Shown piece by piece: positions 2,561-8,688 of a stretch of DNA of 21,088 bases. The first letter of the stretch is position 1, and each line of letters begins with the position of its first letter. This stretch comes from a virus (Duplodnaviria; Heunggongvirae; Uroviricota; Caudoviricetes), in the IMG/VR virus record IMGVR_UViG_2541047945_000001, one strand, 5' to 3'. Below the pieces are notes generated by a model. That model searched no databases. It was not told where the DNA came from and saw nothing but the letters and a program-made list of their open reading frames with translations. Both the position numbers and the translations under genes were made by a program.

Positions 2561-3084
2561 CTATCAAATCAAATACGCCAGCACACGACAAGGACTGCTG
2601 GCAAACGCCGCTTTGGCTTTTTGATGCACTGGATATTGAGTTTGGATTCTGGCTGGATTCGGCAGCGAGCGACAAAAATGCTCTGTGCGCTCACTGGCTA
2701 ACTGAGGACGACGACGCGCTCAATTCTGAGTGGGTAAGCCACGGTGCAATCTGGAATAACCCACCGTACAGCAATATCAGGCCGTGGGTGGAAAAAGCCG
2801 CTGAGCAGTGTATACAACAGCGACAGACGGTAGTGATGCTTGTGCCAGAGGATATGTCTGTCGGATGGTTCAGCAAGGCTCTGGAGAGTGTTGACGAAGT
2901 TCGTATTATCACTGATGGACGGATTAATTTTATCGAACCATCGACAGGGCTGGAGAAGAATGGAAACAGCAAAGGCTCCATGCTGCTGATTTGGCGACCG
3001 TTCATCAGTCCTCGACGGATGTTTACTACCGTATCCAAAGCGGCATTGATGGCGATCGGGCAGGGCGTCAGGAGGGCTGCATGA
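2557..3084 (+). CDS. Phage DNA N6-adenine methyltransferase (Dam-like)
   Basis: [25 protein letters not shown]… with the NPPY catalytic motif (IWNNPPYSN); start overlaps the ninB stop (ATGA), stop overlaps the ninE start. Confidence 0.85.
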
Positions 3085-3257
3085 GACGACAGCGACGAAG
3101 CATCACCGACATAATCTGCGAAAACTGCAAATACCTTCCAACGAAATGCTCCAGAAATAAACGCAAGCTAATCCCAAAAGAATCTGACGTAAAAACCTTC
3201 AATTACACAGCCCACCTGTGGGATATCCGGTGGCTAAGATATCGTGCGAGGAAATGA
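3081..3257 (+). CDS. ninE: NinE
   Basis: [22 protein letters not shown]…[26 protein letters not shown] (58 aa) matches lambda NinE; ORF track 2991 is an upstream extension. Confidence 0.85.
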
Positions 3258-3259
3258 CA

Positions 3260-3601
3260 ATGGATTATTCACAGTTAAGTGATTTTGAAATTAACAGAAT
3301 GGTAGGAGACATAATTTTTAAAGGCCTTTGGGCAAGTAAACCGGAAACATCAGGGAATAACACCAACAAATGGTATTACGGAAATGCTGATACAACTTTT
3401 GAGCCATTAAATCATTTGCCTGACTACTGCAATGATCCGAGCGCTTCATGGCCGATTATTGAGAAATACAGGATTTCTATCTTAGACCAGTTAACTGAAT
3501 GGTGTGTGGATGCAAAAGGCGTAAGCCCAATATTTGATACCAGACCTCTCCGCGCCGCCATGATTGTCTTTCTCCTGATGCAGGAGGCCAATAATGCTTA
3601 G
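3260..3601 (+). CDS. NinX-like conserved hypothetical protein (function unknown), hydrophobic C-terminus
   Basis: [37 protein letters not shown]…[17 protein letters not shown] between ninE and ninF, the position of ninX in P22-type nin regions; AGGA RBS before ATG 3260 (alternative ATG at 3254). Confidence 0.6.
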
Positions 3602-3788
3602 CCCATCTCAATCCCTTCAATACCTGAAAGAAAGCATAGAGCGGGCTTCAATGTGCACAGAGTGGATTCTATCTAGGTTTAGCGCATACAGAAGATTGCC
3701 GGTAAAGGGCATGCCAAGCAAGTCGATGCTGCATATGCAAAAGAATGCGCGCTGGAAGGTATGGCGAGAACACAGGTTATGTGGCTAA
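3594..3788 (+). pseudogene. Chimeric ORF: ninF 5' end (first ~20 codons) running into unrelated sequence; probably a recombination scar, not a functional gene
   Basis: [18 protein letters not shown]… matches the lambda NinF N-terminus, then loses all resemblance (no Cys-rich NinF core). Confidence 0.5.
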
Positions 3789-3811
3789 AAGAGGGGGTTA
3801 TTAAGGCGTGA
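3677..3811 (+). pseudogene. 3' remnant of a DLP12 ybcO-like gene (frame 2), ending in an overlap with the rusA start
   Basis: Frame-2 translation …[29 protein letters not shown] resembles the YbcO C-terminus as I recall it; in-frame TAG at 3674-3676 closes it upstream; stop 3809-3811. Confidence 0.45.
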
Positions 3812-4170
3812 ATACCTACAGCATCACATTACCCTGGCCTCCGAGCAATAATCGCTATTACCGCCATAATCGCGGGCGCACGCACGTCAGCGCAGAGGGG
3901 CAGGCATACCGCGATAACGTCGCCCGAATCATTAAAAACGCAATGCTGGATATCGGCCTGGCTATGCCTGTGAAAATCCGCATTGAGTGCCACATGCCGG
4001 ATCGCCGTCGCCGTGACCTGGATAATCTGCAAAAAGCCGCTTTTGACGCACTCACTAAAGCAGGTTTCTGGCTGGATGATGCTCAGGTCGTTGATTACCG
4101 CGTTGTGAAGATGCCTGTTACCAAAGGTGGGAGGCTGGAACTGACCATCACCGAAATGGGGAATGAATGA
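3808..4170 (+). CDS. rusA: RusA Holliday-junction resolvase
   Basis: 120-aa [49 protein letters not shown]… essentially identical to E. coli DLP12 RusA; GTG start. Confidence 0.95.
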
Positions 4171-4307
4171 TGTTTGAGTTTAATATGGCAGAACTTCTTC
4201 GCCACCGCTGGGGGCGTCTGCGCTTATATCGTTTCCCCGGTTCTGTTTTGACCGATTACCGAATACTGAAGAATTACGCCAAAACCCTGACAGGAACAGG
4301 AGTATGA
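4167..4307 (+). CDS. ylcG: YlcG-like small protein (46 aa, function unknown)
   Basis: [46 protein letters not shown], overlapping the rusA stop; same position as ylcG in DLP12. Below the ORF-track length cutoff. Confidence 0.7.
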
Positions 4308-4392
4308 AGTCAGAGATAACAATCAACTAATACTGTTTTGTTGATTTTTGCTTGTAATTGGCGTTCTGGTCTGATTTTTGTGGAGTAAGTTG

Positions 4393-4776
4393 ATGCGTGA
4401 TATTCAGATGGTTCTTGAGCGTTGGGGTGCGTGGGCGGCTAATAATCATGAAGATGTGACCTGGTCGTCCATTGCCGCCGGTTTTAAGGGATTAATTCCT
4501 TCAAAAGTAAAATCTCGCCCGCAATGTTGTGACGATGACGCGATGATCATTTGCGGGTGCATGGCCCGTCTGAAAAAGAACAACAGCGATTTACACGATT
4601 TATTAGTAGATTATTATGTATGTGGTATGACATTCATGTCACTGGCAAGTAAGCATTGCTGCTCGGATGGTTATATCGGGAAAAGGTTACAGAAGGCTGA
4701 GGGCATAATTGAAGGGATGTTAATGGCATTAGATATCCGGTTAGATATGGATATCGTTGCTAATAATTCTAATTGA
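4393..4776 (+). CDS. quuD: Late-gene antiterminator Q (DLP12 QuuD / phage-21-82 class, not lambda Q)
   Basis: [62 protein letters not shown]… matches DLP12 QuuD; GGAG RBS 7 nt before ATG 4393. Confidence 0.9.
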
Positions 4777-4830
4777 TATGCAATTGTTTACTAAAAGTTA
4801 TTAAAAATGGGGCGTGGAAACGCCCCCAAA
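4777..4830 (+). promoter_or_regulatory. Candidate late promoter (pR'-equivalent) and qut region just downstream of Q, with GC hairpin GGGGCG-tggaaa-CGCCCC (4809-4826)
   Basis: Position by analogy with lambda pR'/qut; TTGATA…TTTACT…TATTAAAAAT motifs and a hairpin are visible, but the exact -35/-10 assignment is uncertain. Confidence 0.3.
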
Positions 4831-4912
4831 ATAAAGGGTAATATATAACAGAAGGTTTATATAGTAAGAAGCAAGGTAGTGCTTCTAAAGGAAGTGGCTT
4901 GAGGGCTCCACT

Positions 4913-4953
4913 TATATGTTGCGGAGGCAAAGCCTCCCGCAACATATCTTTTT
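4913..4953 (+). terminator. Rho-independent terminator, + strand (candidate tR' equivalent), in the Q-nmpC intergenic region
   Basis: TATATGTTGCGGAGGC-AAA-GCCTCCCGCAACATAT stem-loop followed by CTTTTT. Confidence 0.6.
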
Positions 4954-4964
4954 CGTAAGTCAGA

Positions 4965-6047
4965 TTAGAACTGATAAACCAGACCTACAGCGACGATGTC
5001 GTCGGTATCAATACCAGCTGTTTTGGTAAACTTACTATCGTCAATTAAGTTGATTTTGTAATCAACAAAAGTAGACATGTTTTTATTAAAGTAGTAAGTA
5101 GCACCGACATCGACATACTTGACTAAGTCTCGGTCACCATGAACACCAAGGTCTTTACCTTTTGACTGAAGGTAAGCAACAGATGGGCGCAGACCGAAGT
5201 CAAACTGATATTGTGCTACTGCTTCAAAGTTTTGTGCTTTGTTTGCAATATGGTTATTACCAAAAACGGTCATATTCTGAGTTTCAGAATATGTGGTAGC
5301 CAGATAGATATTGTTCGCATCATATTTCAGGCCTGCAGCCCATACTTCCGCATTTTTGCCGGAGGCATTGAATTTGCTCTTACCATAGGCGACCTGACCG
5401 TCAGTGCGATCTGATTTAGCATAGGTTGCACCCACGCCGAATCCTTCATACTCATAAGTAGTGGAGAAACCGAAACCATCACCATTGGCTTCAGTTACGT
5501 CAGTGCGGTCATTTTTACCCTGATACTGAGCAGCAAAGTTCAGGCCATCGACCAGACCAAAGAAGTCGTTGTTACGATAAGTTGCAACACCAGTAGTGCG
5601 ACCAGTCATGAACACATCTGTTTGGGTCCAGGTATCACCACCGAATTCTGGCAGAACGTCAGTCCACGCACCGATGTCGTATGCTACACCGTAGTTACGG
5701 CCGTAATCGATGGAGCCGTAATCACCAAATTTCAGGCCTGCAAATGCAAGACGGGTTTTGTCTTTGGAAGAACCTTGAGATTCAGCACGGTTGCCTTTGA
5801 ATTCATATTCCCACTGACCGAAACCAGTCAGTTGATCGTTGATTTGGGTTTCACCTTTGAAGCCAAGACGGGCATAAGTAGTATCACCATCATCTGCATC
5901 ATTAGAGGAGAAGTAGTGCTTGGCATTAACTTTCCCGTATAGATCCAGCTTGTTACTGTCTTTATTATAAATTTCAGCTGCCTGAGCAGACATCGCCATC
6001 AGTACTGATGCAGCTACAGCAGAAATTGCCACTGTTAATTTTTTCAT
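4965..6047 (-). CDS. nmpC: Outer-membrane general porin, NmpC/Lc (OmpC/OmpF family), intact with signal peptide
   Basis: Minus-strand ORF; [23 protein letters not shown] signal peptide then [16 protein letters not shown]… and C-terminal …VAVGLVYQF with terminal Phe. Start set at the MKK ATG, not the 20-codon upstream extension of the ORF track. Confidence 0.92.
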
Positions 6048-6473
6048 TGTACGCCCTTTTTTTGAACTATTATTAAAAAATGATGTCACTGCGCGATAAA
6101 TATTCATCTAATCAATGTGATTATTTCAAGATGTAAGTTTTAGTTTCTCATTTAATTTGTGAAGTAGATCTCTATTTTTATCTGAACCTTTTCTATCTAA
6201 TCCTATTCATGGCTCTTGTCTGAACAAAAATAAATCTATTAGCTAATTTATATTAATGGCACTTATTTATAAGTGCTCTATAATTCTTTAGCTTAATTTA
6301 AACAAACTAAAAATAACATCGGAAATTATTAACTGATTATTTGTTGAAGTTTTCTTATGTATTTGTGGTGGTGTTTTGAACACTCGGTGGCATTCTCACA
6401 AATATCATTTAGTAGTTTACGTACGTAAAAAATTGGTTATGCTGTTAAGAGTGGTTACTTCGTCACACAGCTT

Positions 6474-6506
6474 AAACCCGCCGTCGAGCGGGTTTTTCCA
6501 TTTTTT
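6474..6506 (+). terminator. Rho-independent terminator-like hairpin, + strand, ~130 bp upstream of the holin gene
   Basis: AAACCCGC-cgtcga-GCGGGTTT stem followed by TTCCATTTTTT. Confidence 0.55.
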
Positions 6507-6635
6507 GAGTCTCGATATTAGCTGATAACCCAATACCTGAGTTATTCACTGACTCCGAATCTGTTACGTTTCTGCCTTTATTGCGATACGTAATATCCCC
6601 TTAATTTACACCCGCTTTGTCTGCGAGGTGGGGTT

Positions 6636-6851
6636 ATGAAATCCATGGATAAGTTAACAACGGGTGTCGCCTATGGCACCTCAGCAGGTAGTGCCGGTTA
6701 CTGGTTTTTACAGCTGCTCGATAAAGTCACGCCCTCACAGTGGGCAGCAATAGGTGTGCTGGGTAGCCTGGTATTTGGCCTGCTGACGTACCTGACAAAC
6801 CTTTATTTCAAGATTAAAGAAGATAAGCGCAAGGCTGCGAGAGGTGAATAA
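6636..6851 (+). CDS. essD: Holin, phage-21 S21 pinholin class
   Basis: 71-aa [74 protein letters not shown], close to S21 / DLP12 EssD. Confidence 0.92.
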
Positions 6852-7348
6852 TGCCTCCATCATTACGAAAAGCCGTTGCTGCTGCTATTGGTGGCGGAGC
6901 AATTGCTATAGCATCAGTGTTAATCACTGGCCCAAGTGGTAACGATGGTCTGGAAGGTGTCAGCTACATACCATACAAAGATATTGTTGGTGTATGGACT
7001 GTATGTCACGGGCATACAGGAAAAGACATCATGCTCGGTAAAACGTATACCAAAGCAGAATGCAAAGCCCTCCTGAATAAAGACCTTGCCACGGTCGCCA
7101 GACAAATTAACCCGTACATCAAAGTCGATATACCGGAAACAATGCGCGGCGCTCTTTACTCATTCGTTTACAACGTGGGTGCTGGCAATTTCAGAACATC
7201 GACGCTTCTTCGCAAAATAAACCAGGGCGATATCAAAGGCGCATGTGATCAGCTACGTCGCTGGACATATGCTGGCGGTAAGCAATGGAAAGGTCTCATG
7301 ACTCGTCGTGAGATTGAGCGTGAAATCTGTTTGTGGGGTCAGCAATGA
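6851..7348 (+). CDS. rrrD: SAR (signal-anchor-release) endolysin, lysozyme family, R21-like
   Basis: 165-aa ORF with Gly/Ala-rich N-terminal SAR domain ([20 protein letters not shown]) then a lysozyme domain; start overlaps the holin stop. Confidence 0.9.
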
Positions 7349-7806
7349 ACAGAGTAACCGCGATTATCTCCGCTCTGGTTATCTGCATCATCGTCTGCCT
7401 GTCATGGGCTGTTAATCATTACCGTGATAACGCCATTACCTACAAAGCCCAGCGCGACAAAAATGCCAGAGAACTGAAGCTGGCGAACGCGGCAATTACT
7501 GACATGCAGATGCGTCAGCGTGATGTTGCTGCGCTCGATGCAAAATACACGAAGGAGTTAGCTGATGCGAAAGCTGAAAATGATGCTCTGCGTGATGATG
7601 TTGCCGCTGGTCGTCGTCGGTTGCACATCAAAGCAGTCTGTCAGTCAGTGCGTGAAGCCACCACCGCCTCCGGCGTGGATAATGCAGCCTCCCCCCGACT
7701 GGCAGACACCGCTGAACGGGATTATTTCACCCTCAGAGAGAGGCTGATCACTATGCAAAAACAACTGGAAGGAACCCAGAAGTATATTAATGAGCAGTGC
7801 AGATAG
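7345..7806 (+). CDS. rzpD: Rz i-spanin (inner-membrane spanin)
   Basis: [26 protein letters not shown]… with N-terminal TM helix and coiled-coil-like remainder; overlaps the endolysin end. Confidence 0.9.
7565..7747 (+). CDS. rzoD: Rz1 o-spanin lipoprotein, nested in the +1 frame of Rz
   Basis: [52 protein letters not shown]…: lipobox LVVVGC and proline-rich body, wholly inside Rz. Confidence 0.85.
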
Positions 7807-7837: not shown

Positions 7838-8131
7838 TTATTGTGAGCAATACACACGCGCTTCCAGCGGAGTATAAATGCCTAAAGTAATAAAACCGAG
7901 AAATCCATTTACGAATGTTTGCTGGGTTTCTGTTTTAACAACATTTTCTGCGCCGCCACAAATTTTGGCTGCATCAACAGTTTTCTCCTGTCCAATTCCC
8001 GAAACGAAGAAATGATGGGTGATGGTTTCCTTTGGTGTTACTGCTGTCGGTTTGTTTCCAACAGTAAACGTCTGTTGAGCACATCCTGTAATAAGCATTG
8101 CCAGAGCGGCAGAAAACAACATTTTTTTCAT
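7838..8131 (-). CDS. bor: Bor outer-membrane lipoprotein (serum-resistance moron)
   Basis: MKKMLFSAALAMLITGCAQQTFTVGNKPTAVTPKETITHHFFVSGIGQEKTVDAAKICGGAENVVKTETQQTFVNG…ARVYCSQ (97 aa) matches lambda Bor; AGGA RBS before ATG 8131; ORF track 8179 is an upstream extension. Confidence 0.92.
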   Translation of the reverse strand: MKKMLFSAALAMLITGCAQQTFTVGNKPTAVTPKETITHHFFVSGIGQEKTVDAAKICGGAENVVKTETQQTFVNGFLGFITLGIYTPLEARVYCSQ

Positions 8132-8247
8132 CTTATTATCCTGCATTGTTAAAAACGGCAGAATCCTATGTGACAACAATTAAACGATAGTTAAATGGAT
8201 TGATGAAAATTAAAACTATATAGGTGGATGCTCAGCCTATTGGAGGA

Positions 8248-8493: not shown

Positions 8494-8688
8494 TCATCCA
8501 TCATCACTTTGGATTGATGTATATGCTCTCTTTTCTGACGTTAGTCTCCGACGGCAGGCTTCAATGACCCAGGCTGAGAAATTCCCAGACCCTTTTTGCT
8601 CAAGAGCGATGTTAATTTGTTCAATCATTTGGTTAGGAAAGCGGATGTTGCGGGTTGTTGTTCTGCGGGTTCTGTTCTTCGTTGACAT
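8494..8688 (-). CDS. ylcI: Small YlcI-like protein (DUF3950 from memory), predicted ribbon-helix-helix DNA-binding fold; function unknown
   Basis: 64-aa minus-strand ORF MSTKNRTRRTTTRNIRFPNQMIEQINIALEQKGSGNFSAWVIEACRRRLTSEKRAY… with a strand / helix / G-x-S-G turn / helix pattern; sits where ylcI lies in DLP12. Confidence 0.55.
   Translation of the reverse strand: MSTKNRTRRTTTRNIRFPNQMIEQINIALEQKGSGNFSAWVIEACRRRLTSEKRAYTSIQSDDG

Follow-up and report, generated by a model that had tools for sequence, protein, structure and literature searches.

An intact NmpC/Lc-type porin gene on the minus strand between Q and a homologue of the late promoter pR′ in a lambdoid phage

Porin genes of lambda-like E. 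coli phages are textbook material: nmpC resides in the qsr′/DLP12 prophage, lc in phage PA-2, and the RNA IpeX has been described alongside them. Lysogenic conversion by PA-2 through Lc has been known since the 1970s–80s. IpeX, described by Castillo-Keller, Vuong and Misra in 2006, is reportedly 167 nt long, bounded by the stop codon of the porin gene and the rho-independent terminator, and is reported to lower OmpC and OmpF.

For the late promoter the closest described systems are the Stx phages 933W and Sp5, whose pR′–tR′ unit is the source of StxS RNA and whose Q is ~80% identical to that of the phage studied here. The Q stop codon of 933W is immediately followed by the annotated pR′, qut and first terminator; the cargo of Stx phages (tRNAs and stx) comes after tR′, is read in the sense orientation and is under the control of Q. 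dRNA-seq and Term-seq of Sp5 placed the 3′ end of StxS 258 nt downstream of the primary start, with an RNase E cut, GU/AUU, at +173 (PMC7547250).

The window, that is, the whole 21,088-nt stretch of DNA that was analysed, covers the early-right and late region of a lambdoid phage and starts at the replication genes. The genes around the porin are as follows.

3808–4170, plus strand: rusA
4393–4776, plus strand: Q antiterminator, QuuD-type, of the Q21/Q933W family (Pfam PF06530, E=7.7e-54)
4965–6047, minus strand: intact general porin gene of NmpC/Lc type, 360 aa, with the signal-peptide codons at 5979–6047
6636–7806, plus strand: lysis cassette S-R-Rz of phage-21 type (Pfam PF04971, PF00959, PF03245)
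6636–6851, plus strand: S21-type holin/antiholin of the cassette
6851–7348, plus strand: endolysin of the cassette
7333–7806, plus strand: Rz of the cassette, with Rz1 inside it at 7565–7747
7838–8179, minus strand: Bor lipoprotein (PF06291), beyond the cassette, cargo-like
8494–8688, minus strand: DUF3950 protein (Pfam), beyond the cassette, cargo-like

Pfam matches confirm Q, holin, endolysin and Rz as neighbours of the porin, as the first-pass annotation had named them. Q also matches the PDB structure of Q21 (E=4e-8). Its similarity to 933W Q extends over residues 1–121 and the C-terminus differs; homology among Q alleles stops just past an L(E/D)MD motif, at about 4753. The Bor and DUF3950 genes make two more minus-strand, cargo-like genes past the lysis cassette.

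The porin gene and its relatives

The porin reading frame runs from its start (MKKLTVAIS) at 6047 to a stop at 4965, and both the list of open reading frames and the translation give 360 uninterrupted residues. A frameshift or stop within 4965–6047, which would have undone the claim of an intact gene, is not present there. Residues 29–360 cover profile positions 1–337 of 337 in Pfam Porin_1 (PF00267; E=1.9e-151), and the protein aligns end to end with solved chains of OmpC (including 2xe2_A), OmpK36 and OmpF at E ~1e-137. The first 23 residues agree throughout with the signal peptide annotated for Lc, and the C-terminus, LVYQF, carries the terminal aromatic residue (…VYQF). The 16-strand domain is thus full-length and unbroken, as in the general bacterial porins (OmpC/OmpF/PhoE/NmpC). 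Reading frame, Porin_1 match and signal peptide agree with the earlier description of a complete minus-strand porin between Q and the holin. The gene lies on the opposite strand, in the Q–S interval, with flanks homologous to those of DLP12 and PA-2, as in the NmpC/Lc module of lambdoid prophages. Judged by its sequence, 4965–6047 carries, in intact form, the NmpC/Lc porin gene long known from lambda-like E. coli phages.

In K-12 DLP12 (qsr′), nmpC likewise lies between Q and S and points the same way; its intergenic regions match those here at 97% (Q–porin) and 94% (porin–S) identity. The K-12 gene is split by IS5, which bears out the statement that an insertion sequence disrupts it, whereas the porin in the window is unbroken by IS5. 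Phage 434B carries the K-12 DLP12 block, including nmpC::IS5, through the classic qsr′ recombination. A 17-bp segment upstream of S (6563–6579) is present in the window and missing from K-12 DLP12. The lc gene of PA-2 again shares position and orientation, the whole 2.8-kb record (GenBank J02580) aligning to the window at 91% identity. Alignment to PA-2 lc and K-12 nmpC, which the first-pass annotation had proposed as a check, therefore upholds homology at ~91–97% identity over this stretch, and the 3′UTR and terminators are the same in both relatives as here.

The coding sequence itself is divided. Over the first ~180 residues Lc and K-12 NmpC are identical to the porin of the window except for one to three substitutions. 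The protein differences, together with two small indels, cluster in five patches that, assigned from the known porin fold, would fall at external loops L4–L8 of OmpC. At the DNA level the 5′ half of the gene (5560–6047) is 94–100% identical to lc/nmpC and the 3′ half (4965–5560) only 63–84%, by which the gene presents as a mosaic allele and not as a set of point changes. The 3′ half belongs to a different allele, and the protein has 360 residues as against 365 in K-12 nmpC and PA-2 lc. The 360- and 365-residue allele classes have the same flanks, and both lengths are common among IMG/VR loci.

The arrangement is widespread. Over window positions 4300–6900, Escherichia phages 2G7b and PhiR11_1 match at 100% identity, several further temperate coliphage isolates match at 99%, and 2,391 of 5,426 complete E. 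coli genomes have a place covering at least 80% of this segment. Using the 21-nt intergenic motif GGTAATATATAACAGAAGGTT (window 4837–4857) as a search pattern, we collected 120 loci sharing it from IMG/VR. About 98 of these encode an intact porin of 360 or 365 residues and have the motif AGTGGTTAC 1610–1630 bp from GGTAATATATAACAGAAGGTT.

IpeX and the hairpins of the left flank

Between the porin stop codon and Q lie three structured elements.

4797–4964, minus strand: porin 3′UTR, an IpeX-like structured RNA of 168 nt
4803–4826, minus strand: porin/IpeX intrinsic terminator (hairpin 4809–4826), GGGGCGU-UUCC-ACGCCCC followed by AUUUUU
4914–4953, plus strand: terminator-like hairpin inside the IpeX region (hairpin 4914–4947), 15 bp with a bulge, followed by CUUUUU (−21.9 kcal/mol, z=−6.1)

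The 3′UTR is 97% identical to the K-12 quuD–nmpC intergenic region and 93.7% identical to PA-2, and folding of its minus-strand RNA gives a succession of hairpins (−53.6 kcal/mol, z=−6.7). It occupies the same place as IpeX and has nearly the same length (168 versus 167 nt); relative to the K-12 RNA it carries few substitutions, chiefly in loops and bulges. By place, length and sequence, 4797–4964 on the minus strand is the IpeX RNA. Scanning all of the window against Rfam (E≤1) gave no match; Rfam has no family for IpeX or for the pR′ RNA. Covariation analysis of 38 distinct, very similar 3′UTR sequences returned no double-sided compensatory changes. In the same set 39 variable columns are unpaired and 10 paired, and pairing survives a small number of A-U to G-U changes, on the minus strand only. 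The prophage small RNA svsR was considered for the porin region and set aside, as it concerns the cI region instead.

The two hairpins point in opposite directions. That at 4809–4826 has a U-run on the minus strand only, its plus-strand side continuing with CAAAAUAA. The hairpin at 4914–4947 is followed on the minus strand by AAGUGG, which makes no terminator in that direction; on the plus strand it could stop read-through from the Q gene.

The probable late promoter and its terminator

A second group of plus-strand elements lies between the porin and the holin.

6415–6443, plus strand: late promoter pR′, by homology to the annotated 933W pR′; −35 GTTTAC at 6415–6420, 17-nt spacer, −10 TATGCT at 6438–6443
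6450–6470, plus strand: predicted pR′ start (the A at ~6450) with the conserved initial transcribed region, which may serve for pausing or Q loading
6474–6506, plus strand: tR′, the intrinsic terminator just past pR′ (hairpin 6474–6495 and T-run), homologous to the first 933W terminator after pR′

Positions 6413–6500 are ~80% identical to the pR′/qut/terminator segment of 933W, in which the shared elements align as GTTTACGnnCGTAAAAA…TG(T/A)TAAGAGTGGTTAC…AACCCGCCG…CGGGTTTTT. The start region AGTGGTTAC is conserved in 933W, PhiR5_1, SfII, Stx2a_1447 and P27. When +1 is set on the A of AGTGGTTAC, the Sp5 sequence reproduces exactly the mapped 3′ end (+258) as well as the cleavage site (+173); the check was made through these internal distances, the Sakai coordinates in PMC7547250 following an older record version with a 142-nt offset. 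By homology, then, 6413–6500 is the counterpart of the mapped pR′ of the Stx phages 933W and Sp5, and its start would lie at ~6450, 186 nt upstream of S. The segment thus joins a homologue of a mapped pR′ used by a related Q to an intrinsic terminator placed before the late genes, as expected of a Q-dependent late unit.

No counterpart of the 933W segment was found beside Q in the window, where the sole homologue is that at 6413–6500. The start motif TAAGAGTGGTTAC has one exact match in the window; a search at up to three mismatches gave only one other hit, which is at chance level, and no second copy near Q. In ~290 Stx-phage records the pR′ segment lies under or beside Q. Phage PhiR5_1 shares the rusA–ylcG–Q 5′ region at 98% identity, without the porin, and has the pR′ element directly after Q. 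That Q directly adjoins this element in 933W and PhiR5_1 sustains the view of the porin as a self-contained cargo gene (a moron) oriented against Q and the lysis genes that flank it. With Q homology ending at ~4753 and the pR′ element starting at 6413, the porin module is placed at about 4754–6412, between Q and pR′.

The first-pass annotation had instead put the Q-dependent promoter just after Q, at 4777–4830, from where Q-modified polymerases would cross ~1.8 kb antisense, together with two plus-strand terminators, and silence the porin at induction. Such a position has parallels, as pR′ directly follows Q in most lambdoid phages (933W, for example), the plus-strand hairpin at 4914–4953 looks like a terminator, and the viability of phage 434B with nmpC::IS5 implies that a long distance from Q to S is tolerated. 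However, a consensus promoter scan of 4777–4830 found no sigma-70-like −35/−10 site, the hairpin in that segment terminates the minus strand, and the segment is the porin 3′UTR, IpeX. The sole homologue of the mapped pR′ start region lies downstream of the porin, in an element that is nearly invariant in 98 IMG/VR loci. We consider a promoter at 4777–4830 highly improbable, and the proposed antisense silencing by late transcription lapses with it.

Placing pR′ at 6413–6500 also changes the meaning of the two hairpins that had been thought to bracket the porin (4913–4953 and 6474–6506). Both exist and both have plus-strand T-runs, but 6474–6506 is read as tR′, the target of Q, because of the pR′ homologue beside it, and not as a porin bracket. 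Its efficiency as tR′ is uncertain, since transcription in Sp5 lysogens continues past the homologous first hairpin as far as a second terminator, at +258, which the window lacks. The −10 of the window pR′ (TATGCT) has 4 of 6 consensus positions only, which counts against the assignment, as do the identity of Q to Q933W of no more than 80% and its different C-terminus. At 6487, in the 3′ arm of tR′, about 30 of the 98 IMG/VR loci have GAGCTGG where the others have GAGCGGG; the variant creates a stem mismatch and should thereby weaken tR′. At one IMG/VR locus the −35 region of pR′ is replaced by AATCAGTAAGTTGGCAGCATCACC, presumably an IS1 end, and the −10 and start region are left intact.

The −35 region of pR′ contains a short perfect palindrome followed by an A-run. 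Its sequence differs with the Q allele, while positions +1 to +50 are common to all.

Window, 6416–6429: TTTACGTACGTAAA
933W (Q ~80% identical): TTTACGATCGTAAA
PhiR5_1: TGCGGTCCGCA
SfII (locus L007, ~4750–4760) and Stx2a_1447: GCGTACGC
P27: GGAATTCC
Positions outside the window and SfII: 3927–3940 (locus L004) and ~2474–2484 (locus L009)

The palindrome that accompanies QuuD/Q933W is TTTACGnnCGTAAA. These palindromes may be Q-binding elements of this Q family.

Expression of the porin and the placement of cargo

The right flank of the porin gene holds the following.

6048–6412, minus strand: porin 5′UTR and promoter region, AT-rich (GC 25–30%)
6155–6175, in the porin upstream region: CRP-like site, 8 of 10 consensus positions, mapped from a CRP site annotated in the PA-2 record

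The nmpC promoter (PnmpC) has been mapped genetically in K-12 to within −199 to −1 of the start codon and gives measurable transcription (PMC11677980). This K-12 region is ~94% identical here. A minus-strand terminator was found for the module, and a promoter scan picked up no consensus porin promoter. The PA-2 record annotates two CRP sites, of which one maps to 6155–6175. The other, the 'CRP binding site' at 1067–1087 in the 1986 record, maps to 6450–6470, the conserved initial transcribed region of pR′, and is probably a misassignment. On the plus strand, GAACTA-N16-TCACT at 6062–6096 resembles a sigma-E promoter, antisense to the porin 5′UTR and outside the porin coding sequence. PMC7918800 gives primers said to reach from −121 to +650 relative to the lysis-operon start of DLP12, in the definition of Rueggeberg 2015; their coordinates put this +1 at ~6096 on the plus strand, behind the same motif.

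We propose, as a very probable reading, that the porin module sits on the opposite strand between Q and pR′ with its own promoter, IpeX and terminator, and that Q transcripts diverge from it. The reading draws on the integrity of the gene, its homologies, the orientations of the hairpins and the conserved architecture; from these we infer where exactly transcription begins, how efficiently the terminators act, the loading of Q and the insulation by 4914–4953. In the lysogen the porin would be transcribed leftward from its AT-rich promoter with the CRP-like site (~6100–6200), and its transcript would end at the minus-strand terminator at 4803–4826. Late transcription would run rightward from ~6450 at pR′ (6415–6443), stopping at tR′ (6474–6506) when Q is absent and continuing into S-R-Rz when Q is present. 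With pR′ downstream of the porin, Q-dependent transcription would diverge from the porin gene and never cross it. The plus-strand hairpin at 4914–4953 would stop unmodified polymerases leaving Q before they enter the porin antisense. The porin 3′UTR, as IpeX, would lower OmpC and OmpF, and the phage porin would in this way replace the host porins, given the effect reported for IpeX.

Early transcription could modify this picture. Rightward transcripts with N-type antitermination might ignore the hairpin at 4914–4953 and cross the porin antisense during lytic growth, lowering porin and IpeX before Q acts. Q is the last gene of the plus-strand early right operon, with one hairpin only before the porin, and in lambda N-modified transcription continues past Q. 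The window, however, starts at the replication genes, so that any N-type system would lie outside its view. We hold this addition to the main model to be possible but somewhat doubtful.

The gene may, alternatively, be intact but quiescent, its AT-rich promoter silenced and lysogenic conversion lacking under usual conditions. The low GC content of the upstream region (25–30%) is compatible with silencing, and the title of the 1998 paper by Prilipov reportedly calls nmpC a quiescent porin gene in E. coli B, so that expression in a given host is not assured. PA-2 lysogens, on the other hand, make Lc. Moreover, NmpC amounts to ~2% of the proteome of K-12 NCM3722, where nmpC is intact, and rises under carbon limitation (PMC8144880), and the nmpC promoter is active in K-12 (PMC11677980). 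These observations argue against general quiescence, which we regard as unlikely, and they make independent expression of the porin in the lysogen plausible and lend support from the literature to lysogenic conversion by it, both as first suggested. OmpC is ~10-fold or more lower in NCM3722 than in MG1655 (PMC8144880), which lends only indirect support to a lowering of OmpC and OmpF by IpeX.

Genes other than porins occupy the same interval. In Shigella phage SfII, genes 49 and 50 (locus 3082–4696) lie on the minus strand between a PF06530 Q and a AGTGGTTAC/hairpin element preceding S. Genes 23 and 24 of Stx2a_1447 (locus 1–1447) are likewise on the minus strand beside a AGTGGTTAC/hairpin element, the Q gene itself being seen in SfII. 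The products in both phages show no relationship to porins, nor any significant Pfam match. Placement of cargo between Q and pR′ hence seems recurrent. In phage Lambda_ev087 (locus 3538–4062) a related Q (87% identical) has behind it a promoter-like segment of another kind, then a terminator like the second 933W tR′ and then an antisense lipocalin (Blc) gene, which is another antisense cargo gene just after Q. Tentatively, and with less confidence than in the map itself, we suggest that this placement is a recurrent, selected way to insulate lysogen-expressed genes from late transcription, that the hairpin at 4914–4947 serves both as an IpeX stem and as a stop for read-through from Q, and that the −35 palindromes are bound by Q.

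The comparison with the Stx phages brings out what the corrected map implies. The window shares with 933W and Sp5 the −35 palindrome, AGTGGTTAC and the first hairpin terminator. Whereas in the Stx phages the pR′–tR′ unit adjoins the Q stop codon and cargo follows it, in the window cargo lies upstream of pR′, antisense, would escape control by Q, and the second terminator at +258 is lacking. With the late promoter and tR′ between porin and holin, the porin module would stand outside the Q-controlled transcript, unlike stx. The map thereby bears on the timing of prophage cargo expression, the porin in the lysogen and the toxin at induction. Where the porin gene is present in intact form, outer-membrane permeability and the display of phage receptors can change, as already documented for strains in which nmpC is intact.
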